Under the pieces are notes generated by a model that saw nothing but the letters and a program-made list of their open reading frames with translations, searched no databases and was not told the DNA's origin. The position numbers and the translations under genes are program-made. 37,329 nucleotides of DNA from IMG/VR virus record IMGVR_UViG_3300045988_163332, positions 1-37,329 of that record; one strand, given 5' to 3'. Source of the stretch: a virus. Below, piece after piece: positions 3,036 through 37,329 of the stretch (the first letter of the stretch is position 1; every line of letters begins with the position of its first letter).

Positions 3036-3914
3036 CTAATCTGTTATTATTAAAGTCCAACCATTAATTATTAAACTTCCACAAGTTAAACCAGAGTTAG
3101 TAACTATTGCTCCTAATACTGTTAGATTTTGTGTAATAGTTCCACCAGATGTTGGAAGTTTTGTATTATCAGCTATTGTAATATTGGCACTACCATTAAA
3201 ACTAACTCCGTTGATAGTTCTAGCAGTTTGCAATTTTGTAGCAGTAGCAGAGTTTCCTATACAAACATCAGCACTATCAGCAGTTGTAGCACTCTTTGCT
3301 TTATCTTCTTTACCTAATTTATTATCTAATAAATTATTAGTTTCAGTTTTAGTATATATATCTGGTTTATTTATTAGTTTTTCATAATCAGTAGTTCCAG
3401 GTTGACCGCTTTGTCCTGGTATCCCTTGTTGACCTCTAGGGGCAGTAAAATCATATGTGCTACCATTAGTTAAAGTCACAGTATAAACATTTCCACCATC
3501 TTCATTAGTATTCTTAAATGTTATACTTTTTACTCCTACTCCATCAGCTCCTTTAGGACCTTGAATACCTTGCTCTCCAGTATCTCCCTTAGGTCCTTGA
3601 GGACCAGTATTTCCAGTTATACCTTGTTCCCCTTTATCTCCCTTAGGTCCTTGAATACCTTGAGGACCTTGGGGACCTTGTGGTCCAGTATCTCCCTTAT
3701 CTCCTTTAGGACCTTGAATACCTTGCTCTCCAGTATCTCCTTTAGGACCTTGAGGACCTTGTATTCCTTGCTCTCCTTTTGCACCAGGTAAACCTTGAAT
3801 ACCTTGTTCCCCTTGTATTCCTTGTTCTCCTTTAGGACCTTGAGGTCCGATATCTCCTTGTTCTCCTTTAGGACCTTGAGGACCTACAACATTACCTATA
3901 ATTAATTTTGGCAT
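3036..3914 (-). CDS. Collagen-like repeat protein, a second tail fibre or fibre subunit.
   Basis: Residues 11..125 are continuous Gly-X-Y triplets (nt about 3540..3884), mostly GPQ, GPK, GEQ and GIQ. The C-terminal part is globular and rich in Thr, Asn and Gly. Confidence 0.6.
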
Positions 3915-3927
3915 AATTAAAACCTCC

Positions 3928-5307
3928 TTATTCTAAAATTTCTAATACCAAATTCCCATCTTCATCTATTGAAAAATTTGGTTGAGTATCATTCTCGTTA
4001 TAATATACAACTAAGTTTCCATCTTCTATTTGGAATATGTACTGACTATTTATAGGAGTGATTACAGCAGTTCCATTATCTCCTTTATCTCCCTTATCTC
4101 CTTTAGGACCTTGTATTCCTTGAGGACCTTGGGGTCCGATATCTCCCTGCTCTCCCTTAGGTCCTTGTTCTCCTTGTATTCCTTGAATGCCTTGTTCGCC
4201 TTTTAGTCCTTGAAGTCCTCTTTCTCCTTGAATACCTTGTTCCCCTTGTATTCCTTGAATACCTTGAGGACCTGTTATTCCTTGAGGACCTTGAGGTCCA
4301 ACTTCTCCTTGTATTCCTTGCTCTCCTTGAATACCTTGAGGTCCATTTTCCCCTCTTTCTCCTTGGTCTCCTTTATCTCCTTTGAATCCTCTTTCTCCTC
4401 TTTCCCCTTTCGGTCCTTCTGGTCCATCATTGCCTTGAATACCTTGAGGACCTCTTCGTGCTAATAATTCTCCTATAATTTCTCCGTCTTCACGGTAGAC
4501 TGTATAGACGTTTCCTTCTGGTAATTCTTTATTAAAACCAACACTTGCTATTGAGTACCCTCTTTCTCCTTTTAAATCTTGCATATGATAGTCTATATAA
4601 TCTTGGATTTCTTTTTCTGCTTCTTCTATTTTTTCTTGTGTATATTTATCTAATTTTAAATAACTATCTGTTTTAAGATAATTATCAATAATTTCTTTTA
4701 AATCTTTTTCTAATTGAATAACTAGCTCTTTTACTCTATTATCCAAATCTTCAAGTAATATTTTTTTTGTATCTTCATAAATCTTATTGAGCAACTCTTG
4801 ATATTTCTCAAATAGTGTAGTTACAGGATAAGTAGCTATCCCATCATCTGACATATACCAGATAGAACCTTTTGGTAAATCTGGTAAACCTAATTGTTTG
4901 GGTATTCCACTATCTACAAATAATTGAGATTTTATAATTTCTTTTTCTGTTCCAAGTATTGCAGCTTTTATTTTAGTAAACATATTATTTAGATTTTCTG
5001 GTGTAATATCTCCTGTACTACTAAAAGTAAAATCTAAATCAAAATAAGGTTCAGACTTAACTATCTTAATATCTGTGTAATCATTCCATATGTCATCTGG
5101 GTAGTTAGTAAAATCAATGTTTCCAGCATTGTATGTGTAATAATCTTTAGGTATAAGGAATATAAAAGCTGTGCTAGTTATAGGATTTTGTTTTTTCCCA
5201 TAGACTTCACAACTTGTCATTAAGTCTGAAAAGCTAGTAGCATACTGTTGTCTATTCTCTTCTAACTTAAAATACTCTTTTTTAAAATTTAACATTTGCT
5301 TAAACAC
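3928..5307 (-). CDS. Tail fibre protein with an internal collagen-like triple-helix region.
   Basis: 459 aa. The N-terminal part is globular. Residues 286..412 are Gly-X-Y repeats (nt about 4072..4452), followed by a short C-terminal beta-rich tail. Confidence 0.6.
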
Positions 5308-7217: not shown

Positions 7218-7246
7218 GGGGAGTGTTGCAGCACTCCTCCTTTTTT
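7218..7246. terminator. Bidirectional hairpin terminator just downstream of the stop of the 1633-aa gene.
   Basis: Stem ggagtg / cactcc with loop ttgcag. T6 on the plus strand (7241..7246) and T5 on the minus strand. Confidence 0.55.
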
Positions 7247-10200
7247 ATTCTCCTACTATTTTTTCTGCTAAATCATATCCTGTTTTAGCCATATTAACAT
7301 TTGATGTACCTAGTCCTAGTTTTAAAATATTTGCTCCAGCTTTTTCAAAATCTCCTTTAGATAAATTTTGAGCTATCTGTATAGGTCTTCTTGCTACTGC
7401 TGAACCATTAACTAAAGCCCAAGAGTTTATTTGAGAATCTAGTACTTCCCAAAATGCACTACCTGGACTATCTATTAAATCATCTATTTTTTCATTGATA
7501 GTTGCTATTGGGTCAGTGTAAAAATCTAAGTCGGTTACAAGTGCTAGTCCTCCATATAGTCCTGTTACTCCTAAGATATGTTTGAATAATCTTTTTTGCC
7601 ATATCTTATTGCCCCAATCAAAATGCCCATCTACTATATTAGAGGCGTATAAATCTCTTCCCAATCTTCTCCATTGTTCTTGTATAGAAGTTTTGAAGTT
7701 TCCCATCAACCTCATAAAATTTCTGTGGATAGGATTTTCAATATTTTCAATGACAGCTCTCATAGAAGCATTAGTTTCAGTAGGGGAAATATCAGTAACT
7801 ATTTTGTCATGTAACTTAGTTATTTTTTCAGTAATATTTTTTCTTATTAAGTCAAATTCTTCATTGTATAGAACTCTTCCTAATTGTTTTTCTACTTCTG
7901 ATTTATTTATAAAATCAAATAAGTCAACTTCATTAAATACACCTAACTCATTAAATTCTGGAATATCTTTTAATTTTTTTATGAAATAAAAGTCTAAATC
8001 ATCTATACCTACATTTTTAAATAAATTTTTCATATAGGCAGTATTATTTTTAAATAAATCATCTAAGTCTTGAAATTTACTCATATTTCTTAAAATCTCT
8101 GCACCCTCAAAAAAAGCTGCAAGTTTCATAACCTTTTGGCTCTCTCCATAAAAATTTAATTTATTAAGTCCTGTGTCTATTCCACTAATTATCTTTTCCC
8201 ATTTGCTACCATACTTATTTATCCTTTCTGCTATCTCTCCTGTTACATCATCTGCCTTATCCATAATAGAATTGAAAAATTTTAAAGGTACTGAATATTC
8301 AAATCTACTTCCTAAAGCTTTATCATATTTATCAAACATTTCTTTACTTAGATATAGCACTTGTGCAGCCTTTAAAAAATTTTTATAAGTTTCAGTAATA
8401 CCTGCTGAATTATATAACATAGTGCTAGCCCTTGCCATTGTTGGTGCTTCAAATATAAAGTCCTTTGTAAATTTAAGCCCTGTTAAACTAACTTTATTAC
8501 TATAACTTAAAAAATTAGTAATAGCTTTGTCTGCTATTGTTTTTGGTGGTTTTGTAATTCTTCCTAAATCCATTCCTATTCTATCATCTATTTTTTTCTC
8601 AATGGCTCTAACTAAAGTTTTATAAGTATCATTTGCAGTTTTTCTTTGAGTTTCATTCAAGATTCTTTCTATACCATTCATTCCATGTCCTGGTAAATTA
8701 TCTTTAATGGCTTTAGCTACTGAAATTTCTCTTATAAATCTTCTAATAGCTGTTCTATCAGAAGTCTTATTTTTATTTACAAGTCTTGTTAGATTTTTTC
8801 TTTTTATAATTTTTTCTCCATTAATAAAGTCATCAAATCTACCAAATCTATGAAGATGTCCTCCGAGAAATTTATTTTTGTAACTTCCTTTCTTACTCAT
8901 CATATCCATAGTATAAAAATATTTTGCATTATTTTTTCTACTTTCTAATATATTTTGAGCTATAAGGTTAGTATCCACCTCTTTGTAAAAGTCTGATTTT
9001 TCAATAAATTCTTTTATTTGTGGTATTCCCTCAAGTTTATATTTTTTAACAAGTGCTTTCTTATCTGATGAACTCATACACTCATTAGCTTTAGCCATTA
9101 ATTTTATAATTTTTTCTTTAGGAGCTTTATTCTTTCCTTTAAGATTATTAATTAAAGTTTCTGGTGTTGATTCAAAGAACTCTAAATTATCTTCTGCAAA
9201 AGCATTTCTTATAGTAAGCAATCTTTCTGGGATATTAAGTTCTACTAAATCATCATAACTCAAATCTCCTCTTATAAATTTATCTAAATCAACCTTTTTA
9301 TCATCTCCTAGATACTTCAATATATCTTCTTGTCTTATATATTTTTCTGCACTTAGGTTGTGGTCAAACATAAAATTATTGACAATGTCATCTACTGTTA
9401 TCTCATAACCATTTGTCAATTCTTTCATAGTGCTATAAAACTCTTCTCTTAATCTTAGTATCTCTGGTTCAAGCTCTTTTAAGCTATCTGGTAAACTTTT
9501 ATAATTCCATCTAAATAGATAATGAGTTAGATTTTCTCCATTCTCTTCAAATAAACTTATTAATTTATCTGGATTTAATTTCTCGCCTTTATAAGTTATA
9601 TTGAAAGCATTAGTTAGCATACCTTCCATTTGTTGCTTAGTTTTCTCGTATGGAATAAATAAATTTGTTTCAAGATATTCGCTCATAAGTGATGAAGCTT
9701 GTCCAACGTCTTTAGCTTTCCAAAATATTTCTGGTATATCATTTTTCCACTTAGCATACTTACTAAAACTTTTTCTAAGTTCTGCTATTTTTTTACCTGG
9801 GTCTTTTATTCCTTTTACAGAATCAATCATATTTGAAAATGCTACTATGTCTTCAGTTCCTGTATTTTTAGGTAATTGTAAATCAAGTAATTCTACAGTT
9901 TCAGAATTTATTTTACCATTTTTTAACATGTTATTTATTTTGTCATTTATTATATAACTAATCTCAAAATTTACATCTGGATATTTAGAAAAATGTCCTT
10001 TTGTCATATCTTCTATAGCTTCTCCAAATGTCATATCTGCTATATCTTTTTTTTGAAATTTTATACTCTTAAATCCTGGAGCTTGGTATTTGTCTATTGC
10101 GTGTTCTATTTCATGCCTTAAAGTACCTAGTTTTAAATCTAAATCATCTTTCATCATTAATGGATTTAAACTTATTTTTATTTCTCTTTGGTTACTTGAA

Positions 10201-12146
10201 TTTATCCTACTTCTAGTAACTCCATAAACACTTGTAAATTGCTCTTCAGTTTCTCCTAAATATTCAAAATCTATTTTATATTTTTTCTTATAAAATTCAG
10301 CCATTTCTTCTGGAGTGTTTATATTATATTTTTTTCTAACTGTCTCCCCTGCTTTTTTTATTATTTTTTCATGTATATCTCTTATTTGTGTCTTGTCAAC
10401 TGTGCTATCAAGTCCTAGTTCTTTATAAACTATTTTTTTTACTTCTTCAACACTTATAGGTTTTATTGGCTCTGGGGTTCCATTCATATCATCTACTATA
10501 TTAGTTACTTTTCTTTGAGGTGTTATATTTTTTTGTGTTCCTGGTGCTGCATTAACATCAAGCTCGTATGTATCTCCTAAATATCCATATTGCTCTGTAA
10601 GTCTATAATCTCCATAATATTTCTTACCATCTATTTCATATTCAAAGTTGATATGGGCATCTCCCTTTAACCATTTTTTTCTAGTAATTGGAGTTCCATG
10701 TTCTGTAATATGTACTAAGTCTTGATATGGTGTTTTCTCAATAGCTCCTCTTACATACTTAACATTTGCACCTGGTGGAATAATTCCATCTTTTTCAAGA
10801 TTTGCTTGTAATGTTCCTGTTGGAAAATCTCTATAATTATGCTTTATTTTTCTTTTTTTTCTTTCAAAAGTTTCATTATCAACTATATGATGTTGTACTT
10901 TCATATCTTCAAATAAAGGTTCATAGCCACTATCATTGCCATTAAGATTTTTATCAACCTCTTCCATCATTCCTGGAACATCAACTCTTACATCAGTTAT
11001 CTTGTCTGGGTTAGTCAAGTCTAAAAAGAACTCAAAAGCTTTCTTTTCTCCCTCTCCAAGCTTTCCACTATCAATATATTCTTTTGCTAAATTTCTTATA
11101 AGAATTGGATTTTCATTTAAAATTTTATTGAAGTCAGCTCCGTTTTTAATAAAGTCTATATCTGGGTCATCTATCATTTTCAAGACAATAGACCTAGCAT
11201 ATAAGTCAGCTTGAAATTTATTAACATCATTTATATATAAATGCTTAAATAAAAATCTTTCACTACCTTGAGAGCCTTTATATTCATTTATAATACCTAG
11301 ATTATCTTTTATTCCTACTGTATTTTCTAAATCTTTTATAGTCATATCTCCATTATTTAATATAGAGCTTTCTTGTATTTTTTTATCAGCCTCTGAAAAT
11401 AGATTTATTATTATTTCTTGGGATTTCTTTTTTCTTGCTATATTATCAAACTTAGTTTCTATTTTATTAGCTACCTTACCTATTCCCATTCCTAGACCAG
11501 CAAATAAAAGTCCTGCACCAGCTCCACCAACTCCAGAATAAATAATCTCATCAAGTTCTGGAGTTCTACCCTCTGATATATAAATATCTGCACTTTCTTG
11601 TACCATATTTTCTATACCATTTAAAACTGCCGTTGTTCCAAGTCTACCAGCTACAGAAGTAGCTCCTATATATCCTGCAACATATGGACTTAAAAGAGTA
11701 GTCCCAAGTAATACAGGGAGTTGTCTTACATCAGTAGCAACTCTTAAACTCTCTGCTCCTGCACTCATAGCCCACTTTTGAGTTATATTGGGTTCTAATT
11801 CTATTTTTTTTCTAAAGCTATCTTTAAAGTTACTTGCAAAATCTTTATATTTTATATGGTTTTCCTCTGCCGTTTTTAAAAAATCTATAGGTTTTGTTTC
11901 TCCTGTTGCACTTTTATATGCAGCTCCTAACCAACTATAGTAAGTTGATTTTGCAATATTTTTAGAACTAGATAATATATCTCCTATAATTTCTAATTGT
12001 GGTATATCGTAAGATACTTTATTACCTACAACGTTGAATTTTTCTATATTTTCTTTGTTAGCCTCATAATATTCTTTATTTATTTTAATTACATCATCAT
12101 TACCCTCTAAAGATAATTTATTACCATAAGTTACAAGTCCTGCCAT
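7245..12146 (-). CDS. Giant (1633 aa) internal virion or ejection protein, gp16-like by position. It carries an embedded thermolysin-like (gluzincin) metallopeptidase motif and an N-terminal glycine-rich hydrophobic region.
   Basis: HEIEH is encoded at 10101..10115 and GEAIED at 10008..10025, matching the thermolysin pattern HExxH...NEAISD. A Gly/Ala-rich hydrophobic stretch spans residues about 145..225 (nt about 11472..11714). It is the last of a small/medium/giant trio (178, 694 and 1633 aa). Confidence 0.6.
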   Translation of the reverse strand: MAGLVTYGNKLSLEGNDDVIKINKEYYEANKENIEKFNVVGNKVSYDIPQLEIIGDILSSSKNIAKSTYYSWLGAAYKSATGETKPIDFLKTAEENHIKYKDFASNFKDSFRKKIELEPNITQKWAMSAGAESLRVATDVRQLPVLLGTTLLSPYVAGYIGATSVAGRLGTTAVLNGIENMVQESADIYISEGRTPELDEIIYSGVGGAGAGLLFAGLGMGIGKVANKIETKFDNIARKKKSQEIIINLFSEADKKIQESSILNNGDMTIKDLENTVGIKDNLGIINEYKGSQGSERFLFKHLYINDVNKFQADLYARSIVLKMIDDPDIDFIKNGADFNKILNENPILIRNLAKEYIDSGKLGEGEKKAFEFFLDLTNPDKITDVRVDVPGMMEEVDKNLNGNDSGYEPLFEDMKVQHHIVDNETFERKKRKIKHNYRDFPTGTLQANLEKDGIIPPGANVKYVRGAIEKTPYQDLVHITEHGTPITRKKWLKGDAHINFEYEIDGKKYYGDYRLTEQYGYLGDTYELDVNAAPGTQKNITPQRKVTNIVDDMNGTPEPIKPISVEEVKKIVYKELGLDSTVDKTQIRDIHEKIIKKAGETVRKKYNINTPEEMAEFYKKKYKIDFEYLGETEEQFTSVYGVTRSRINSSNQREIKISLNPLMMKDDLDLKLGTLRHEIEHAIDKYQAPGFKSIKFQKKDIADMTFGEAIEDMTKGHFSKYPDVNFEISYIINDKINNMLKNGKINSETVELLDLQLPKNTGTEDIVAFSNMIDSVKGIKDPGKKIAELRKSFSKYAKWKNDIPEIFWKAKDVGQASSLMSEYLETNLFIPYEKTKQQMEGMLTNAFNITYKGEKLNPDKLISLFEENGENLTHYLFRWNYKSLPDSLKELEPEILRLREEFYSTMKELTNGYEITVDDIVNNFMFDHNLSAEKYIRQEDILKYLGDDKKVDLDKFIRGDLSYDDLVELNIPERLLTIRNAFAEDNLEFFESTPETLINNLKGKNKAPKEKIIKLMAKANECMSSSDKKALVKKYKLEGIPQIKEFIEKSDFYKEVDTNLIAQNILESRKNNAKYFYTMDMMSKKGSYKNKFLGGHLHRFGRFDDFINGEKIIKRKNLTRLVNKNKTSDRTAIRRFIREISVAKAIKDNLPGHGMNGIERILNETQRKTANDTYKTLVRAIEKKIDDRIGMDLGRITKPPKTIADKAITNFLSYSNKVSLTGLKFTKDFIFEAPTMARASTMLYNSAGITETYKNFLKAAQVLYLSKEMFDKYDKALGSRFEYSVPLKFFNSIMDKADDVTGEIAERINKYGSKWEKIISGIDTGLNKLNFYGESQKVMKLAAFFEGAEILRNMSKFQDLDDLFKNNTAYMKNLFKNVGIDDLDFYFIKKLKDIPEFNELGVFNEVDLFDFINKSEVEKQLGRVLYNEEFDLIRKNITEKITKLHDKIVTDISPTETNASMRAVIENIENPIHRNFMRLMGNFKTSIQEQWRRLGRDLYASNIVDGHFDWGNKIWQKRLFKHILGVTGLYGGLALVTDLDFYTDPIATINEKIDDLIDSPGSAFWEVLDSQINSWALVNGSAVARRPIQIAQNLSKGDFEKAGANILKLGLGTSNVNMAKTGYDLAEKIVGE

Positions 12147-14230
12147 TATTCCTCCTTAATAAACTCTTCTACATCAAATACTGCATATCCATTATCAGTA
12201 AATACAGGTTGCCCACCATAGAAAAGTCTTACCTTTGTGCTCCCTATATCTTGTACAAAAGTTATATTTTTCTTATCTCCTATTTCTTTAATAGTTCCAT
12301 TGTAATTAACTTTATATGTATTTTTAGCTATCATTTCATTTATAGCTTTTTGAGTTTTTTCTATATCTCTTTCTTTACCAACAAAACCTCTATCTATTTG
12401 ACCTGTTATAAAGTTAGTTCTCTCCTCTTCTTTTATTATTTTAGGTGCAAATATAACTCTATTATTCCCTAGATTAATAGTATCTAGTCCCTCTGTCATA
12501 GCATTAACTACATTTTCTACCCTGGAATTTACAGTTTCTCTTATTGATTTATCATTTTCTAAAACTCCTTTAAGGAAAGTTCTTTGTTGCTCTGGGGTTA
12601 AACTAGCTATAGGTTGACCTACATATTTTTCTTTTAGTCCTCCTTTATCAGCTAAATCATCTGTTATTACACCACCATATTTAGAATACAATTCTAGTAT
12701 TAGTGTGTCAGTTGCTATTTGAGTTATATCTTTAGTTGCTCTTGTAGCTGCTAAACTTCCATTATTTGCTGCAGCTTGTAGTCCTGCTATTTTACCACCT
12801 GCAGCTATTGAAGTTGTTTTTTTAGGAGCAGCATAGTAAGGAGTATTATTATCAAATTCATAATAAAATTCTGTGTTAAATTCCTTTAGTTCTGAAAAAT
12901 CAGTTATTTGAACTTTATCAAAATTAGCAAGTATTTTTCTATTATCAGAACTATATACTTTGTCAAATTCATCTTTAAAGGTAGTATTCATCTGGTATGT
13001 TTCCATAAGCATACTTCCACCTATTATATTCTCATCTGTGGTATCATAGAAGTTTTTTACTGCTTCATATCCATAACCATTAGCCATCAATTCAGCTTCT
13101 TGTTGCCTAAAATTCATTATCCCTTCCCCAGCTAAATTAGGATTTTTATATACTTCTGTGGTGTCATTTAAACCTTTTTCTTTCCAAGGAATACTATATC
13201 CTAAATTTATAGCTTCATTTACTCCTGTTACAGTTACCCCATTTTTATAGTTTATAGCTTTTACCATTGTACTCTCTGGTATATATCCATCTGCTGCTAC
13301 TTGGTCTTCTTTTAAAGATAATTCCAAAGGATTTGTTTTTTTCTTTTGTTCATATTTTAATCTCTCAACCATAGTATTTTGCTTATTTAATTTTTCTTTA
13401 TTATTTATTCTTGTAAGTCCACTTGTTATAGTAGATTGAAATTTGTTATAGTCATCTACTGTCAAATAAAATTCTCCTGTATCATTTTTAAAGTTGAGAT
13501 CTGAAAACTTTTCCATAAATTGAGAAGTATTCCAAGTAGACATATTTTCAAGAACTGATTTACCATTTGGTTGATTTACAAAAGATGACACATAACTTAC
13601 TATAATATCTTGTCTTTGCTTGCTAGCAAGTTCAATAGCTTTTGTCCCATCTATATATCCTGCTTCTATTGCTCTATCTAAATCTTGAGCTACATTGTAA
13701 AAACCTTGTACTGCTCCTTGATAATCTCCAAGCATAGCAACTGATGAAAGATTATCTCCTTTCATTCTTATAATTCTGTTAGCTTCATCTTTTTGAATTT
13801 TCTCATTATAGTCATTGTATTCAACTAAATAATTTACATTTGATTTTTCAAGTTCTCCTGTTACCATAGAACTATATTTTTCTAATATAGAACCATCTAT
13901 CCCTAATTCCTTTCCATCTTTTTTAAATTGCTCTATATTAGCTTTTATTTCACTCTCTAAAGAGTTATAAGAATCAAAATTATGGAATAATTTTTTATTT
14001 ATTTTTCCCTGGTTATCTCTATCTAATATCATTTTAGACATAGAGGCAGCAAATTGCTGCCCGAATGTTTCTGCTTGTATTAAGTCTTGCTTTTGTTTTT
14101 TCTGGAAAAGTTCCTCAAGTTTACTAGCTACATTTCTCTCTACTCCAAAATCTGCAGCTATATTTAATTGTGGTACTGCTCTACCACTTGGTCTATTTAT
14201 TTTTAAAGGTTGTATTAGTGTTCCTGCCAT
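12146..14230 (-). CDS. Internal virion protein (694 aa), gp15-like by position.
   Basis: Start and stop codons overlap those of the neighbouring genes. No enzymatic motif recognised. Confidence 0.5.
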   Translation of the reverse strand: MAGTLIQPLKINRPSGRAVPQLNIAADFGVERNVASKLEELFQKKQKQDLIQAETFGQQFAASMSKMILDRDNQGKINKKLFHNFDSYNSLESEIKANIEQFKKDGKELGIDGSILEKYSSMVTGELEKSNVNYLVEYNDYNEKIQKDEANRIIRMKGDNLSSVAMLGDYQGAVQGFYNVAQDLDRAIEAGYIDGTKAIELASKQRQDIIVSYVSSFVNQPNGKSVLENMSTWNTSQFMEKFSDLNFKNDTGEFYLTVDDYNKFQSTITSGLTRINNKEKLNKQNTMVERLKYEQKKKTNPLELSLKEDQVAADGYIPESTMVKAINYKNGVTVTGVNEAINLGYSIPWKEKGLNDTTEVYKNPNLAGEGIMNFRQQEAELMANGYGYEAVKNFYDTTDENIIGGSMLMETYQMNTTFKDEFDKVYSSDNRKILANFDKVQITDFSELKEFNTEFYYEFDNNTPYYAAPKKTTSIAAGGKIAGLQAAANNGSLAATRATKDITQIATDTLILELYSKYGGVITDDLADKGGLKEKYVGQPIASLTPEQQRTFLKGVLENDKSIRETVNSRVENVVNAMTEGLDTINLGNNRVIFAPKIIKEEERTNFITGQIDRGFVGKERDIEKTQKAINEMIAKNTYKVNYNGTIKEIGDKKNITFVQDIGSTKVRLFYGGQPVFTDNGYAVFDVEEFIKEE

Positions 14231-17091: not shown

Positions 17092-17266
17092 TTATCCTGT
17101 TACCTCCTTCTATAAATTTTTTCATTACTTTTAGTTGCTCTGGAGTATTTGCTAATTCAACTCCAATTTTTCCTACAACTAAAAAGAAAGTTCTTGCTTT
17201 GATATATTTGTTTTTTAATAAAAATCTCATAAATTTAAAAAATATTATAAATAATTTACCTTTCAT
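17069..17266 (-). CDS. Small hypothetical protein (65 aa) that overlaps the recombinase stop.
   Basis: Good RBS: ggagg, 8-nt spacer, then ATG. Its start overlaps the recombinase stop codon. Confidence 0.35.
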   Translation of the reverse strand: MKGKLFIIFFKFMRFLLKNKYIKARTFFLVVGKIGVELANTPEQLKVMKKFIEGGNRIIGKTQSN

Positions 17267-17954
17267 TTTCCTGTGCCTCCTCTAGTATAATATTTTTCTT
17301 ATACTTGTAATATGTATTCTTAGTTATCCCTAGCAGTGTAAAGACTTCTATATCTTTAAGATTTCCTCCAAAATCTTTAGCTAGTTTTTTAATTTTCTCT
17401 CTCATCTCCTTTTCTTTCTTGGTAGTATAAGTATCTCCTTGTTTTCTACCTAATATAGTTCCTTTAGCTTTAGTAACTCTTAGTCCCTCTTTTGTCCTTT
17501 CTCTAAGGTCTAATACTTCCTTTTCAGCTTGGTCAAATGCTATTTTAATTTGTTCTTGAGCTAATATCTTCAATACTTCATTGGTTGCGTCTATGTATAT
17601 ATCAGCTATTTTATTTCCTGTTGAATCTATTTTATTCTCTAAAGCTTTTTTATAAAGGGCTGTATTGATATATCCCTCTTTTAAAAATATAAGTTCAATA
17701 CCTCTTTCTACAAAATTAAAATATTCTTTTATTCCCTCTTCTGCATTTCTACTCATTCTACTAACAGAATCAAATATAATTGTATCTCCAGGTTTAACTA
17801 TTTTTTTTAGCTTACTCCATTCTTTTCTATCTGTTGTAGTTCCTGTATATGCTTCTTGAAATACTTTAGCAGTTGGATATATCTTTATGATATTTTCCAC
17901 CTGTCTTAAAATATTTTGTTTTTTTGTAGATACTCTGCAATAACCGTATATCAT
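17256..17954 (-). CDS. Small serine recombinase (resolvase or invertase family) with a C-terminal HTH.
   Basis: The N-terminal block YGYCRVSTKKQ contains the catalytic Ser motif of serine recombinases. 232 aa, with a C-terminal helix-turn-helix (LLGITKNTYYKY). Confidence 0.8.
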   Translation of the reverse strand: MIYGYCRVSTKKQNILRQVENIIKIYPTAKVFQEAYTGTTTDRKEWSKLKKIVKPGDTIIFDSVSRMSRNAEEGIKEYFNFVERGIELIFLKEGYINTALYKKALENKIDSTGNKIADIYIDATNEVLKILAQEQIKIAFDQAEKEVLDLRERTKEGLRVTKAKGTILGRKQGDTYTTKKEKEMREKIKKLAKDFGGNLKDIEVFTLLGITKNTYYKYKKNIILEEAQENER

Positions 17955-20460: not shown

Positions 20461-20643
20461 TTACACCTCTTTATGTTCCCAAGTTATTATAAAAATCATT
20501 TCAAAATTATTTTCAAAAATTGTTATATCTCTTATTTTTCTGATAAAGCTTTCTCCAGAACTTGCTTTTACTATTTCAATATATAATTCCTCATCATCTG
20601 GCAACTTATTTTCATTCTCTAATTGTTTCTTATACATTTGCTT
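20461..20643 (-). CDS. Possible unannotated small ORF. The minimal ATG version gives a 60-aa product. The open frame runs up to about 20850 with no ATG, GTG or TTG start.
   Basis: Translation of the minus-strand gap 20461..20776 is open. A canonical ATG gives MYKKQLENENKLPDDEELYIEIVKASSGESFIRKIRDITIFENNFEMIFIITWEHKEV. Its stop lies 2 nt before the start of gene 19949..20458. Confidence 0.3.
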   Translation of the reverse strand, partial: KQMYKKQLENENKLPDDEELYIEIVKASSGESFIRKIRDITIFENNFEMIFIITWEHKEV

Positions 20644-20776
20644 TAATATAGCAAATCTCTCATCTTTCTCATCTACTTCTGAAAATTTCTCATATATTCT
20701 TACTGTATTATTTTTTATTCCACTCTTTTCTTTTATGTAAAAATGTGGGTCGCTTTTAAATTTTACTTTTACAATA

Positions 20777-21040
20777 TTACGCCTCCTGTTCCCATTTATC
20801 TTTTTGAAATTTTTTATTAAATATTTTAGGTGGATTTACAAACCACTCTACACTGTCAAAGCCTGTATAGATATAGTTGTTAGGTTCTACTTTCTCATAA
20901 TCTATCATTATACAGTCCTCAACTTTTCTAACTTGATGGTTTGATAATACCTCTGCTACTTCCTTATGGTTTTTACCATTAAAAAATACTGCTTTTACTC
21001 TGAAATTACTTTCAATATTTCTATATATCATTCCACTCAT
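20777..21040 (-). CDS. Small hypothetical protein (87 aa).
   Basis: ORF. ATGA overlap with the upstream gene. Confidence 0.45.
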   Translation of the reverse strand: MSGMIYRNIESNFRVKAVFFNGKNHKEVAEVLSNHQVRKVEDCIMIDYEKVEPNNYIYTGFDSVEWFVNPPKIFNKKFQKDKWEQEA

Positions 21041-21375
21041 TATTTCTTTTCTCCTTTTTTAGCTTTATCAAATGGTAACTGTTCTTTTTTTATAGCTTCC
21101 TCTATCTCTTCTGGACTTAGTCCTGCTTCAAATTTTTCAAGGAATTTATCATAATCTACATTTTTATATTTTCCTTGAGATTTTTCACTATCAAAATATA
21201 CTTGTAATGCTTGTTTCTTAGATAGTTTTATAGATATTTCTAAATCTCCATCTTTGTATTTTAAGATAACATTAGCATTACTTACTTGATGTCCAGAAGG
21301 AACTAACTTAGTTGTAGGTTTATATTTTTTTCTAAATGATGTATCTACAACCTCCATAACTTTAATATCTACCAT
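21040..21375 (-). CDS. Small Lys-rich hypothetical protein (111 aa).
   Basis: ORF. Confidence 0.45.
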   Translation of the reverse strand: MVDIKVMEVVDTSFRKKYKPTTKLVPSGHQVSNANVILKYKDGDLEISIKLSKKQALQVYFDSEKSQGKYKNVDYDKFLEKFEAGLSPEEIEEAIKKEQLPFDKAKKGEKK

Positions 21376-21659
21376 TCTTCATCAACTCCTTTTAAAGCTC
21401 TTCTAGCTTTTTCTGTTTTATTTTTCTTTATCTTTTTTAATAAGTTTTCAATACTAATTTCTTTCCAGCCCTCTGCTCCTCTTTCTAGTATTTTTATAGG
21501 ATTTTTAGCTTTAGGTTTCATTCTAAAAAAATATCTAGCTGCCTCATACATAGTTATGAACGATTCCTTAAATTCCATTCTTTTATACTCTTCTCCATTT
21601 ATAACTACTATTTCTTTGATTGATTCTACTATGTAGTTATAGCTTTCTAAATTTATCAT
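21369..21659 (-). CDS. Small hypothetical protein (96 aa).
   Basis: ORF. Confidence 0.45.
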   Translation of the reverse strand: MINLESYNYIVESIKEIVVINGEEYKRMEFKESFITMYEAARYFFRMKPKAKNPIKILERGAEGWKEISIENLLKKIKKNKTEKARRALKGVDEEW

Positions 21660-21768
21660 TGTTACCCCCTTTTTGCTTATAATCTAATTAAAACATTCAA
21701 GTCTTTAAATGCTTTAACTAGAGCATAAGCTCTAGCTTTGTGTGTGTTGTAAGTTATTTTAAGAAAGG

Positions 21769-21984
21769 TTATGAGTTTTCGCCCTCTTGCCAATCTTCCG
21801 CTAAGCAATCATTGACACTTGGTACCCATGTACTTTTAGTTCCGTTTACATTTTTTATAATAAAGTGAGAATTTAATTCTTCTGTTGCTGGAATTAAGCA
21901 TACATACATTCCTTTTCCATTCCAACCTTTACGTGATACTATTCCACCGTGTTTTAAAAGTTCTAAAGCTTCTCCAAAATTCAT
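21769..21984 (-). CDS. Small protein (71 aa) resembling the DUF2829 family. This is the fold of Tad2 Thoeris anti-defence sponges.
   Basis: The N-terminal pattern MNFGEALELLKHGGIVSRKGWNGKGMYV matches the remembered DUF2829 signature F.EAl..lk.Gk.v.R.gWng. Recalled from memory, not searched. Confidence 0.4.
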   Translation of the reverse strand: MNFGEALELLKHGGIVSRKGWNGKGMYVCLIPATEELNSHFIIKNVNGTKSTWVPSVNDCLAEDWQEGENS

Positions 21985-21996
21985 ATTTATTCCTCC

Positions 21997-22464
21997 TTAT
22001 TTTCTGGTACAATCTTCTACCGCTTGGTCGTAGTCTCCTGATGTTGAGCATGATGTATCTTCTGTTTTTTCTATCTTTTCCATCTTTGACTTAAACTTAT
22101 CAATACCTATTCTTTCTAGCAATACAGAATAATATCTAATCATAAGGTCTCTTTGAATAGCTAGTAATTGTCTTTGATATTCATCTGTATATTTTTTCTC
22201 TTCCATTTCTTTTGATAAGAAAGTTGAAAGCTTATCTATTTTAATCTCTAGTTCTTGTGCTTCCTCTTCCATTCTTTCTATATGATTTTTTGGTCTTGTC
22301 TCTATACAACTAGGTTCTAGTATTTCCATAGCCCCAAGCTCTTCAATCTCTTTTTTTAATTCTTGCCAAGCAACAAGACCACTTAAATATCCAGCTTCAC
22401 ATTCAAATCCTACCCCCTCTATATCTTGGATAAGTTTTTTCATTTTTTCATATTTACCACTCAT
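21997..22464 (-). CDS. Acidic, coiled-coil-rich hypothetical protein (155 aa).
   Basis: ORF with RBS aggagg, 9-nt spacer, then ATG. Confidence 0.45.
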   Translation of the reverse strand: MSGKYEKMKKLIQDIEGVGFECEAGYLSGLVAWQELKKEIEELGAMEILEPSCIETRPKNHIERMEEEAQELEIKIDKLSTFLSKEMEEKKYTDEYQRQLLAIQRDLMIRYYSVLLERIGIDKFKSKMEKIEKTEDTSCSTSGDYDQAVEDCTRK

Positions 22465-22490
22465 TCCTACTACCTCCTACCAGTTCCTAC

Positions 22491-22610
22491 CTATTTATCT
22501 ATCCATTCTTTTTTTATCCAAGTAGGAACTTCTTTACCTTTTTTATATCCTAAAAAATATCCTATTACTCCAGCTACCACCAATGATATTATTAATGTTA
22601 TTACTGCCAC
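22491..22610 (-). CDS. Candidate small hydrophobic peptide (39 aa, GTG start).
   Basis: Translation gives (M)AVITLIISLVVAGVIGYFLGYKKGKEVPTWIKKEWIDK. It fits a single transmembrane segment. Below the ORF-track size cutoff. Confidence 0.3.
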   Translation of the reverse strand: MAVITLIISLVVAGVIGYFLGYKKGKEVPTWIKKEWIDK

Positions 22611-22613
22611 TTT

Positions 22614-22718
22614 TTATCCTTTTATCTTATAATCTCTTTTACATTTTCTATATCCCCATACAAAACCACCAGCTACTGCAATGGCTGCTCCAAATAATTC
22701 AATTATTAATCTTGACAT
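22614..22718 (-). CDS. Candidate small hydrophobic peptide (34 aa).
   Basis: Translation gives MSRLIIELFGAAIAVAGGFVWGYRKCKRDYKIKG. Strong RBS aaggagga placed 5 nt upstream of the ATG. Confidence 0.35.
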   Translation of the reverse strand: MSRLIIELFGAAIAVAGGFVWGYRKCKRDYKIKG

Positions 22719-30181: not shown

Positions 30182-30832
30182 CTAATAATATCTCATAACA
30201 CTTCTTAATCTTCCAATGACTCTAAGCTCTGATTGGTCCATTATTTTAATTTTAGGGTAATATGGATTTATACTTTTTAAAAAAATATCTCCCTCATCTT
30301 GTACGAATTTTTTTAAATATACTGCTCCTTGATAATTGACAACTATAATTTTATTTAAAATACAGTCTATGTTTTTAGTGTCAACTATAACTATATCTCC
30401 ATCTTTTATCTCTGGTTCCATAGAATCTCCAGCAACTCTTATAGCTATATTTCCTGTTTTTGCTAAATCTTCTGGCACTTCTATATATTCCAGAGTTCCA
30501 TAATCATTAAAACAACCATATCCAGCTGAAGCTTGAATATCTGGATAAAATGGGATCTTTTTTTGATTAACATTTTTTATTTGCTTTAATTGTAAAAACT
30601 CTTCTTTTAAACTCTCTGGTGCCTTTTCTAAATCTACTAATTTTAATAACTGAGCATAACTTTCTTTATCCATTATTTGTCCTAATTGCTCAATCGTTGT
30701 TGCTGGAATCTTTCTTTTTCCATTTTCAATATTTGTAATAAAAACTTGACTACATAGCAATTTATCGGCTAAATCGACTGCTCTTAAATTATTTTTCTTT
30801 CTAAATTCCTTAATAAATTCTCCTGCTGTCAT
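30182..30832 (-). CDS. CI-type repressor: N-terminal XRE HTH fused to a LexA/S24 autopeptidase domain.
   Basis: HTH block LRAVDLADKLLCSQVFITNIENGKR. S24 motifs GDSMEP and a K further downstream (VAGDSMEPEIKDGDIVIVD). Confidence 0.8.
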   Translation of the reverse strand: MTAGEFIKEFRKKNNLRAVDLADKLLCSQVFITNIENGKRKIPATTIEQLGQIMDKESYAQLLKLVDLEKAPESLKEEFLQLKQIKNVNQKKIPFYPDIQASAGYGCFNDYGTLEYIEVPEDLAKTGNIAIRVAGDSMEPEIKDGDIVIVDTKNIDCILNKIIVVNYQGAVYLKKFVQDEGDIFLKSINPYYPKIKIMDQSELRVIGRLRSVMRYY

Positions 30833-34386: not shown

Positions 34387-35544
34387 ATGATAAACTTTTC
34401 TATAAAAGGAGGGGTAAGCTTGGGAAAGGAAAACTACAATTTGATACACCACAAAGATTTTCATAAACTGCAACTGCAGAATTACAATGTAAAAGAAAGA
34501 GCAATATTTTTAACTCTATGTTTGAAACTTATGGAACAGGAAGATGATGTTGTTAGTTTAAAAATATCAGAACTAACAAAAATATCCAATTATTCTCCAA
34601 GAAAAAAAGGGGATAATATAATACTTTTTCTTAAAGAATTAAATGACAAATTAAAAACTATGGAAATAATACAAACTAAAGAAAATGGAGATTTTAAAAG
34701 TATAACATTGTTTCCAACTTTTGAAGTCAACCAAGATTTTGGAGAGGTAAAAATAAGAGTAAATCCAGATTATAAATATCTTTTAAATCATTTGCAACCA
34801 CCATTTACAATACAAGATGTAGTTGAATACTCTGGACTTAAAAGTGGATATTCTCAACTGATGTATAGCATTTTAAAAAATTGGAATAAAGCTAAGAAGA
34901 TTAGTTTTAAATTAGATGACTTTAAAAAAGAGATGGGAATACCTGAAAATTATAGAATTTGTGATATAGATAGCAGGGTTATAGCTCCAATAACATCAGA
35001 GCTTTCAGTTTTATTTCATGGGCTAAAGGTTGAAAAAATAAAAAATGGAAGGTCGGTAGCTGGGTTTGAGTTTACCTGGAAAGATAACAAGGTTGATGAT
35101 GTAGTAGTTGATGAAGAGGAAATAGAGATTTCAGAAGAGTTGCTATCAGCTATTGAGAAAGCAGAGAAAAACAGATTTATAAAACCTTTCTTGACTGATG
35201 ATAATATAATAAAACTTTTAGATAAATTTAGCCAAGAGCAATTAGAAAAAGGATTGAAAGCTGCTTATGATTTAATTAAAACAGAATTTACAAGTCTTAA
35301 TTATTTGATAAAAGTTATTGAAGATAGTTTGAATAAACCTAAAAGAAAAATAGTTATAAGAAGAACTAAGGAAGCAGAAAAAATAAAAGAAGTTGAAGAG
35401 CCAGTAGTCAAGAAAAAAACAACTCCACTAACTAATGAAGAATATCAAAATGCTATGAAGATATATCAAGCTACTGGAGAAGATTTTGGTTATGAACCAG
35501 AGGAAGTAAGAGAGTATATAAAAAAATATAAGGATTTAATATAG
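34387..35544 (+). CDS. rep: Plasmid-type replication initiator (iteron-binding Rep). Start may be the ATG at 34387 or the TTG at 34430.
   Basis: 385 aa, immediately downstream of the iterons. Strong RBS aaggaggggtaagc before the TTG at 34430. Followed by parA. Confidence 0.55.
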   Translation: MINFSIKGGVSLGKENYNLIHHKDFHKLQLQNYNVKERAIFLTLCLKLMEQEDDVVSLKISELTKISNYSPRKKGDNIILFLKELNDKLKTMEIIQTKENGDFKSITLFPTFEVNQDFGEVKIRVNPDYKYLLNHLQPPFTIQDVVEYSGLKSGYSQLMYSILKNWNKAKKISFKLDDFKKEMGIPENYRICDIDSRVIAPITSELSVLFHGLKVEKIKNGRSVAGFEFTWKDNKVDDVVVDEEEIEISEELLSAIEKAEKNRFIKPFLTDDNIIKLLDKFSQEQLEKGLKAAYDLIKTEFTSLNYLIKVIEDSLNKPKRKIVIRRTKEAEKIKEVEEPVVKKKTTPLTNEEYQNAMKIYQATGEDFGYEPEEVREYIKKYKDLI

Positions 35545-35553
35545 GGGGGTAAA

Positions 35554-36312
35554 ATGAAAATAATATCATTTATAACAGAAAAAGGTGGCACTGGTAAGAC
35601 TACTGGTGCCAGAGAAGTTGCTGGGGTACTATCTCTAGTTCATAATAAAAAAGTTTTGCTTATTGATTGTGACTTTCAACAAAATCTAACTGAGAGTTTA
35701 ATAGAAGCAGACCAAGAAAAAAATATATTTAGAGCCATAAAAGAGAAAGATTTAAAAGGAAATATAATTCCTATTGAAAGAGATGGAAAACATATATTAG
35801 ATTTAATACCTGCAAGTCTTAATTTAAAGGACTTGGAATATAAAAAAGACAGTGTTGATATGGAAATGATTTACCTAGATTTAAAAAAAGGACTAGAGCA
35901 ACTCCAAGAATATGACTATATAATTATAGATTGTAGACCAGATATGAGAGCAATAGAAAGGGCTGTGTTAAAGTGCAGTAATTATGTTATCACTCCTGTT
36001 GAAGCTCATCTATTTAGTTTTAGAGGGTTTGAATTATTAGAGAACTTTATACAAGCTCTTAAAAAGGATTTAAACACTCCATTCATTCATTTTGGATATA
36101 TAAACAGGCTACAAAATGACAAAGAGATATTAGAAGCCACTGAAGATGTCAGAAGTTCTTTTGATAACATATTAGATACTCCTATAAGAGATAACCTTAA
36201 AATATTTAAAGCCTCACAGACAGGACATTTTATAATAGAATATAGTTCTACATCAAATGGGGCTAAGGATTTTAAAGCTCTTACAAAGGAGTTGTTGAAT
36301 AAATGGCAATAA
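35554..36312 (+). CDS. parA: ParA/Soj-type partition ATPase.
   Basis: Deviant Walker A KGGTGKTT near the N-terminus (MKIISFITEKGGTGKTTGA). 252 aa. Confidence 0.85.
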   Translation: MKIISFITEKGGTGKTTGAREVAGVLSLVHNKKVLLIDCDFQQNLTESLIEADQEKNIFRAIKEKDLKGNIIPIERDGKHILDLIPASLNLKDLEYKKDSVDMEMIYLDLKKGLEQLQEYDYIIIDCRPDMRAIERAVLKCSNYVITPVEAHLFSFRGFELLENFIQALKKDLNTPFIHFGYINRLQNDKEILEATEDVRSSFDNILDTPIRDNLKIFKASQTGHFIIEYSSTSNGAKDFKALTKELLNKWQ

Positions 36313-37225: not shown

Positions 37226-37250
37226 AGGAATTTTTCCTCTATTTTTTTTT
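37224..37250 (+). terminator. Rho-independent terminator abutting the start of the right terminal repeat.
   Basis: Stem agagg / cctct with loop aattttt, followed by T9. Confidence 0.6.
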
Positions 37251-37329
37251 AAAAAATCTCTTGACGTCCCAGTGGGATAGGGTTAATATTTTCTTAACTT
37301 GCAAGTGAAAAAATACTTGACGGTCTCAG
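37241..37329. repeat. Right copy of the 89-bp direct repeat. Contains a complete copy of the first left-end promoter.
   Basis: Identical to 1..89. It begins right after the hairpin terminator at 37224..37250. Confidence 0.9.

Follow-up and report, generated by a model that had tools for sequence, protein, structure and literature searches.

SPO1 Tad2 (Gp34.65; PDB 8SME/8SMF/8SMG), the founding member of the Tad2 family (PF11195/DUF2829), is an 89-residue protein of a lytic Bacillus myovirus, in which its gene belongs to the early class. It is a homotetramer of two V-shaped dimers, in which the dimers pack via helix α2 and strand β2 and the tetramer via helix α1, and its two ligand pockets sit between non-dimeric protomers (Yirmiya et al., preprint). 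The bound Thoeris signal, 1''-3' glyco-cyclic ADP-ribose (1''-3' gcADPR, here 3'cADPR), is contacted by W25 and W73 of both chains, N26, D79 and I63/T65, with T78 making the sole hydrogen bond to the adenine and D67, H71 and S76 holding water molecules (Yirmiya et al., preprint). Here we analyse a Tad2-like gene located at 21769..21984 on the minus strand of the viral record IMGVR_UViG_3300045988_163332 (IMG/VR; 37,329 nt, considered over its whole length and called the window below). Unlike the SPO1 gene, it lies behind the head genes of an apparently temperate, podovirus-like element.

Homologs of SPO1 Tad2 have been found to bind 3'cADPR, histidine-ADP-ribose (His-ADPR), N7-cyclic ADP-ribose (N7-cADPR), cyclic dinucleotides or cyclic UMP/CMP (cUMP/cCMP) (PMC12393519). 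Tad2_71 binds both 3'cADPR and N7-cADPR in vitro and inhibits all three Thoeris types tested. ModTad2, or MoTad2, from a Myroides odoratus prophage (88 residues; PDB 8V3E for the apo form, 9EIB with His-ADPR) binds His-ADPR and inhibits type II Thoeris but not type I. Variability within the family is highest in the insertion between strands β2 and β3, which spans residues 36–59 in SPO1 Tad2 and 32–72 in HgmTad2, and which in HgmTad2, SptTad2 and MoTad2 forms a second pocket for cyclic dinucleotides or cUMP. Fusions of Tad2 involve PF21825 more often than any other family (60 instances); the PF21825 proteins are α-helical sponges, dimeric or tetrameric, which sequester 3'cADPR and thereby counteract type I Thoeris (PMC12265669). 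Family, mechanism, ligand plasticity and the link to PF21825 are thus already published, and the novelty here lies in a member of unusual compactness, carried by a phage that had not been described before.

An unusually short member of the Tad2 family

The 216-nt open reading frame (ORF) starts with ATG and encodes a product of 71 residues (MNFGEALELLKHGGIVSRKGWNGKGMYVCLIPATEELNSHFIIKNVNGTKSTWVPSVNDCLAEDWQEGENS). A preliminary description, made from the letters of the DNA, had proposed a DUF2829/Tad2-like protein on the basis of a succession of motifs within the first 25 residues. The translation contains them exactly in that order: F3-G4-E5-A6-L7, L10-K11-(H12)-G13 and R18-K19-G20-W21-N22-G23. 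In hmmscan the only Pfam-A match was PF11195 'Tad2-like', covering positions 1–71 of the 73-position profile with 83 bits (gathering score 25; E=2.2e-23). Two PHROGs families, phrog_1048 and phrog_872, matched at about 1e-20 each, whereas the NCBIfam models matched neither this protein nor its Sequestin-like neighbour nor six further neighbouring proteins. A search of 5.8 billion proteins returned 1470 homologs at E<=1e-3, and all of the best 120 carry PF11195. The sequences in the PDB that were matched by phmmer belong to Tad2-family chains only: ModTad2 (8V3E/9EIB, 2e-16), HgmTad2/AcrIIA7 (8KBI, 1.5e-12), SPO1 Tad2 (8SME, 1.1e-11), pdAcrIIA7 (9KZR, 7e-11) and SptTad2 (8WJD, 2.6e-10).

A single-chain AlphaFold2 model built on a 65-sequence subfamily alignment was obtained with a mean predicted local distance difference test score (pLDDT) of 92.4 and a predicted template modelling score of 0.78. 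It is confident and compact, with disorder confined to the last 5 residues. The model shows the Tad2 fold, with an N-terminal helix on a small antiparallel β-sheet and a short helix before the last strand (predicted elements: α1 3–11, β1 15–18, β2 27–31, β3 40–44, β4 50–52, α3 57–61, β5 65–67). Comparison with the PDB using Foldseek gave 24 matches at E<=1e-3, all of them Tad2 structures, with query-normalised template modelling (TM) scores of 0.80–0.89. Likewise, the named proteins among 32 matches at E<=1e-3 in the BFVD are Tad2-like, DUF2829 or uncharacterised phage proteins. The next PDB match, the neck protein of phage 812, is at E=0.36; a virion-structural role, which the position of the gene behind the head genes might also have evoked, was rejected because this match is insignificant. 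The assignment of the preliminary description is therefore decisively borne out by both the Pfam match and the fold matches: the 71-residue product is a genuine, unusually short member of the Tad2 family.

The residues that clamp the ligand were then compared in an alignment of the window protein, SPO1 Tad2 and five other tested homologs, whose sequences are given in Supplementary Table 12 of Yirmiya et al. The SPO1 residues W25, N26, W73, S76, D79 and I63, which are direct contacts, align with W21, N22, W53, S56, D59 and I43 of the window protein. The pocket core of the latter (W21, N22, G23, W53, S56, D59) is identical in all seven aligned sequences and invariant across the 65-sequence alignment, and the window protein keeps every invariant family position. 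HgmTad2 has the same core in its gcADPR pocket (W21, N22, G23, W87, S90, D93). All the walls of the canonical pocket, namely the β1–β2 and β3–β4 loops, β4, the β4–α3 loop and α3, are retained in the model. The canonical clamp, which in solved Tad2 complexes grips the ribose-diphosphate moiety of the ligand, is thus intact.

Identity to the six tested homologs ranges from 41 to 49% over aligned positions and is highest with ModTad2, which is the best PDB match by both sequence and fold (TM score 0.89; root-mean-square deviation 1.8–1.9; 48–49% identity over the ordered core). ModTad2 shares the W/N/G/W/S/D core and a very similar C-terminal segment, TWxPSVxDxLAEDW. SPO1 Tad2 follows with TM scores of 0.80–0.87 and 45% identity over aligned positions.

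Taken together, we favour, at a probability of about 0.7, a minimal Tad2-family sponge, homo-oligomeric and directed at an ADP-ribose-derived signal made by TIR proteins. The protein would assemble as a tetramer like its solved relatives. Its pockets would lie between protomers and combine the GWNG loops (W21, N22) of the two chains with the W53-x-x-S56-x-x-D59 loop and helix; there the TIR-produced alarm molecule would be bound and hidden. With the signal sequestered, the Thoeris effector of the host would never be switched on.

The missing insertion and the predicted ligand

The main peculiarity of the window protein is the β2–β3 insertion, which is reduced in the model to an 8-residue loop (P32–S39) without a helix. 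SPO1 Tad2 carries at this place 24 residues with helix α2 and the F44 stacking pair, and ModTad2 a β-flanked α2 insertion; both are missing here. The two core tryptophans are consequently 32 residues apart, a distance that amounts to 66 in HgmTad2 and to 43–50 in the six short homologs tested, and no homolog with experimental data has so short an insertion. Among the best 120 hits, 32 is the minimum and is shared only with P0001–P0004 and P0006, the modal values being 48 and 50. The insertion falls mostly outside the 73-position PF11195 profile. DUF2829 proteins of 60–76 residues also occur in cultured phages, as seen with tblastn and in the BFVD (Mycobacterium phage Curiosium, Clostridium phage HM2, Klebsiella phage KpS110 and Bacillus phage vB_BcoS-136). 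To our knowledge none of these short proteins has been tested experimentally.

The shortened loop could betray a decayed or repurposed Tad2 core, in which the loss of α2 abolished proper oligomerisation or left a protein that works only when paired, for instance with the Sequestin-like neighbour. The contribution of α2 to the SPO1 Tad2 dimer interface and the restriction of the short variant to one small cluster, with no tested homolog of this size, are consistent with such a scenario. However, the model is confident and compact, the invariant family positions are kept, and conservation is higher in the gene than in the flanking DNA. Moreover, the short form survives at 77% identity in unrelated phages (L087, L089), which points to selection on function, and the proteins of 60–76 residues in cultured phages show that small size is not peculiar to this lineage. 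We thus consider a decayed or partner-dependent core unlikely, and a functional sponge remains the preferred reading.

The same loop bears on the nature of the ligand. HgmTad2, SptTad2, MoTad2 and Tad2_70 bind signals that are not derived from ADP-ribose, family members inhibit CBASS and Pycsar, and the ligand range is plastic and cannot be predicted from trees. A Tad2-fold sponge for a CBASS cyclic dinucleotide or for Pycsar cUMP/cCMP might therefore be envisaged. In the solved or modelled complexes, however, cyclic (di)nucleotides occupy the second pocket in the V-shaped dimer, which is built by a long β2–β5 insertion (HgmTad2 32–72). The 41-residue insertion domain of HgmTad2 binds cGG or cyclic GMP-AMP (cGAMP), and the insertion pocket of ModTad2 takes cUMP/cCMP. 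SPO1 Tad2, with its shorter insertion, binds no ligands of the cyclic dinucleotide or cUMP type. With 8 residues the window protein lacks the sequence needed, and HgmTad2 R31, L36, S47, F70 and N85 are mostly without counterpart. A non-ADP-ribose signal is accordingly a very improbable target. For the favoured ADP-ribose sponge, the second pocket would be gone with the insertion, and because the insertion is missing only the canonical pocket is predicted.

The DUF2829 family also includes the anti-CRISPR protein AcrIIA7, which is HgmTad2 (PDB 8KBI-8KBM, 8WJC; pdAcrIIA7, 9KZR) and shares the DUF2829 core with the window protein. In an AcrIIA7-type role, a tetramer would bind trans-activating CRISPR RNA (tracrRNA) in a basic groove and block guide assembly of Cas9. 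The PDB entries 9kzr and 8kbi match the window protein at E of about 1e-11, and head-less AcrIIA7 binds tracrRNA via K58, K66, K71, K93 and R101 (2026 paper, PMC13133391). With the 47-residue offset in numbering, the three lysines K58, K66 and K71 would align with K11, K19 and K24. These lysines do not discriminate: K11 and K24 are near-invariant in the subfamily, K19 varies, and tested sponges have Lys at the first two of these sites. The counterparts of K93 and R101 fall in the missing insertion, on which the basic groove depends. Furthermore, the window protein is acidic (net charge about −3.3, isoelectric point 5.2), Cas9 inhibition by HgmTad2 or its homologs was not reproduced (Li et al.), and no Cas9-bearing host is known for the phage. 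An anti-CRISPR role is hence extremely unlikely compared with that of a signal sponge.

If the protein is such a sponge, 3'cADPR would be its single most likely ligand, since most tested Tad2s bind it and since the partner family sequesters the same signal. Serious alternatives are His-ADPR, bound by the closest solved relative, and N7-cADPR, bound by Tad2_71. The sequestration of gcADPR, which the preliminary description ascribed to Tad2 proteins of this family, is the founding activity of the family and not a safe prediction for every member.

Several points weigh against the sponge reading, or against 3'cADPR as its ligand. First, helix α2, part of the V-shaped dimer interface of SPO1 Tad2, is absent; with the insertion the shortest among the 120 best hits, the tetramer must count as unproven. 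Second, the lining of the pocket departs from that of SPO1 Tad2 at T65 (N45), D67 (N47), H71 (S51), Q77 (V57) and T78 (N58), so that the adenine-side and water-coordinating residues of the 3'cADPR binders are not conserved. The window motif is PSVND, compared to 'SQTD' in five 3'cADPR binders (four type I inhibitors in the alignment, and HgmTad2), and is nearer to the PSVSD of ModTad2, the His-ADPR binder inactive on type I Thoeris; at the position of SPO1 T78, ModTad2 has Ser and the window protein Asn, the ligand being demonstrated for ModTad2 only. Third, according to an explicit warning in the family survey, ligand specificity is unreadable from phylogeny. As ligand choice varies within the family, the ligand cannot be read from the sequence. 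Finally, sponge activity, oligomerisation and an anti-defence role are predictions. The lining positions listed above also vary among verified members, the E. coli AIEC protein (PSIGD) being active on type I and ModTad2 (PSVSD) on type II. The differences in the lining thus bear on ligand choice and not on family membership.

We also entertain, as a rather improbable alternative, that the insertion-less protein belongs to a distinct class of Tad2 reduced to the core, which would assemble unlike the published tetramers, for example without the α2 V-shaped dimer. Such a protein might share the labour with the Sequestin-like protein or associate with it physically, and the Cys-bracketed tail described below could be a functional or recombination module, common to both sponge types, by which cassettes of ribosome-binding site and ORF hop from phage to phage at stop codons. 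One of the two sponges could take 3'cADPR and the other His-ADPR or N7-cADPR. If the sponge prediction is true, a protein with 66 structured residues would be near the smallest natural Tad2. It would offer a scaffold for asking what the canonical pocket alone binds and for engineering small signal sponges.

The Sequestin-like neighbour and the Tad2 cassette

A Sequestin-like gene encoding 155 residues (21997..22464, minus strand) lies 12 nt upstream of the Tad2-like gene. It matches PF21825 over residues 60–119 (22108–22287, minus) with E=1e-13 and 51.4 bits, against a gathering score of 24.8; the family was named 'crAss001_48' in older Pfam and is called 'Sequestin' in newer annotation and in PMC12265669. 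The AlphaFold2 model contains two long helices (61–88 and 95–137) with pLDDT values of 90–97 over residues 61–130, corresponding to the α-helical hairpin of about 60–80 residues that defines the family. Confidence is lower for the N-terminal module (residues 1–49) and for the C-terminal tail, and neither a profile search of the PDB nor a fold search of the BFVD gave a significant match. In SequestinA, E12, Q47 and R61 are essential (PMC12265669). Residues R64, E68, Q104 and R118 of the window protein have spacings of +4, +36 and +50, compared to +4, +35 and +49 for R8, E12, Q47 and R61 of SequestinA; this spacing is the basis of the proposed correspondence. All four are invariant or near-invariant in the subfamily. 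The R64/E68 pair also fits the starts of SequestinA, SequestinB and T4 Y16Q, as read from primer sequences (PMC12265669).

The same two sponge families form one unit in the Sequestin-Tad2 fusions (PF21825 + PF11195; e.g. the Comamonas sp. 26 element, PMC12265669 Fig. 1B). Unlike in these fusions, the window pair consists of separate ORFs, with a stop codon, a 12-nt spacer bearing a Shine-Dalgarno sequence and an ATG between them. The Sequestin partner also differs by an extra N-terminal domain and a Cys-bracketed tail. To place the pair among its relatives, we used 67 non-redundant IMG/VR loci with Tad2 relatives, in which the Tad2 ORFs and their immediate neighbours were scanned against Pfam. 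Eight of the 126 neighbours belong to other sponge families (five to PF13876, the Acb4 sponge family, and three to PF21825), and three Tad2 ORFs are fused (two with PF21825, one with PF13876). Therefore Tad2 recurrently travels with other sponge families, as published. In the window, the Tad2-like gene would be translated from the same transcript as the Sequestin-like gene, and the phage would thereby deliver two unrelated anti-TIR sponges together.

The coding-strand sequence before the Tad2 start (AAGGAGGAATAAAT) carries a strong GGAGG Shine-Dalgarno sequence 7 nt upstream of the ATG, within the spacer GGAGGAATAAAT (21985..21996, minus, 12 nt) that separates it from the Sequestin stop codon. 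Sister phages (L090–L094, L095–L097) keep the gene order of portal, 73-residue protein, 220-residue protein, capsid-size protein, small peptide, Sequestin, and proteins of 96, 111 and 87 residues, but without Tad2. In a blastn comparison with L095, window positions 22479→21997 correspond to L095 1015–1475 and window positions 21771→21631 to L095 1473–1604. The two segments meet at a single TAA in L095, so that the extra DNA of the window is a 228-bp cassette (21769..21996, minus) comprising the spacer GGAGGAATAAAT and the 216-nt Tad2 ORF. Its insertion point coincides with the Sequestin stop codon, and the junctions show a duplication of one TAA.

The nearest relatives of the Tad2-like gene are found in unrelated phage backgrounds, with 77% amino acid identity and 76–78% nucleotide identity including the spacer. 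In L089, the DNA preceding the Tad2 gene is homologous to the spacer, and the background of L087 includes HNH, DUF3310, AntA/ANT and Sak genes. Within the lineage that carries it, the gene differs from six other contigs at 2 of its 216 nt (A6T and one synonymous change); in the flanks, identity is about 94.5%. This is the pattern expected of an exchangeable accessory counter-defence gene: a horizontally acquired ORF with precise boundaries, a translational link to another sponge and better conservation relative to the surroundings. The clean presence/absence polymorphism, a 228-bp unit of ribosome-binding site and ORF at a stop codon, is of a kind typical of accessory counter-defence genes and provides a tidy natural example of counter-defence gene shuffling between phages. 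Cassette and tandem sponges are illustrations that do not change current understanding.

Within the 109-nt gap between the Tad2 stop codon and the next gene, a conserved hairpin is located at 21675..21730 on the minus strand (about 25 bp, −27.6 kcal/mol, z=−5.07). All members of the lineage share it, whether or not they carry Tad2, with substitutions in the loop only; it is thus a feature of the recipient backbone rather than part of the cassette. Its inner part was flagged as terminator-like, but the coding strand has no U-tract after the hairpin, which speaks against a canonical terminator. The hairpin could act in RNA processing or stability, or as a site on the DNA. A promoter scan gave the same counts as in shuffled sequences.

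The Sequestin-like protein is about twice the usual size of PF21825 proteins. Its Cys-bracketed C-terminal tail (residues 139–155, 22000–22050, minus), which ends in CSTSGDYDQAVEDCTRK, also occurs in L095–L097, which have no Tad2; most Sequestin homologs of the lineage lack it. DNA homologous to the tail encodes the C-terminal extension of short-insertion Tad2s in unrelated phages (P0002: ...CSTASSYDEAVEDCFK). The corresponding segments are 22000–22067 (minus) in the window, 3005–3062 in L087, 845–869 in L089 and 1410–1475 in L095. The tail (CST...AVEDC) is thus a small mobile module, exchanged between the two types of sponge. In the unrelated phage L087, about 750 bp without a convincing ORF (3127–3880) directly follow the Tad2 gene, whose encoded C-terminus differs between P0003 and P0004.

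The extra N-terminal domain (residues 1–58, 22291–22464, minus) has the pattern FECEAG...W..ELKKEI, with C22, W33 and C53 conserved. It was found in just 8 clusters among 1.84 billion representatives, without informative partner domains, and is sometimes a stand-alone protein of 48–62 residues. Its motif F-E-C-E-A-G-x-L-x5-W-x-E-L-K-K weakly resembles a repeat, PFDCDAGYSNWQAGWSEPKKAWCC, of which 7 stretches were matched in P0142, a large Cys-rich protein of 572 residues; this may be chance. In P0140, P0141 and P0145, versions of the Sequestin-like gene shift frame at the start of the Sequestin domain (...PKKSYRKNGRGS compared to ...PKNHIERMEEE), which stems either from natural frameshift variation or from misassembly of an A-rich run.

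The phage genome and its other genes

The two ends of the window are identical over exactly 89 bp (1–89 and 37241–37329), which makes it a complete genome, circular or terminally redundant, of about 37,240 bp (about 37.2 kb) and 30% GC. It encodes a T7-type portal (PF12236), a terminase large subunit, podovirus-like tail proteins, a holin, proteins like the single-stranded DNA-binding protein (SSB) and MazG, and the recombination proteins Sak and Gp157. A CI-like repressor with helix-turn-helix and S24 domains (30182–30832, minus), a serine resolvase (17256–17954, minus), a Rep3 initiator (34387–35544, plus) and ParA (35554–36312, plus) suggest that the phage is temperate and possibly plasmid-like (a phage-plasmid).

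Megablast with 15 kb and 25 kb of the window found no match among INPHARED phages or PLSDB plasmids. By tblastn against phages, the portal is only about 23% identical to those of pelagiphage and Methylophilales podophages, and it has no relative among the GTDB species genomes. In the same collection the holin (PF05105; 526–981, minus) has one match, at 76% identity, to L098 3001–3441, a contig of 28% GC from a Fusobacterium sp. metagenome-assembled genome of the human gut HRGM collection. This contig shares only the holin with the window, and Fusobacterium as host is thus a weak lead; a literature search for Thoeris in Fusobacterium was uninformative. If the sponge predictions are true, an uncultured, temperate phage, possibly infecting Fusobacterium, would carry two unrelated, co-transcribed sponges against TIR (Thoeris-type) defence, and immunity by TIR signalling would be a significant barrier in its host.

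Further small genes surround the sponge pair. Just upstream of the Sequestin-like gene, two single-pass membrane peptides (22491–22610, 39 residues; 22614–22718, 34 residues; both minus) consist of a hydrophobic stretch followed by GY.K.K. A similar peptide of 51 residues (L087 2611–2766) directly precedes the short-insertion Tad2 gene in the unrelated L087 and L088. Downstream of Tad2, four small genes conserved in the lineage (20461–21659, minus; 96, 111, 87 and 58 residues) sit between the sponge pair and the SSB-like and MazG-like genes and are candidates for accessory functions. The genes of 96, 111 and 87 residues have no match in Pfam, PHROGs or NCBIfam; for the 58-residue ORF this negative concerns NCBIfam only.

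Proteins of 1633 residues (7245–12146, minus) and 694 residues (12146–14230, minus) match neither Pfam nor PHROGs; the phage being a very divergent podovirus, they probably belong to its virion interior or its tail. Two other genes (3036–3914 and 3928–5307, both minus) encode proteins with collagen triple-helix repeats (E of about 1e-22), presumably tail fibres.

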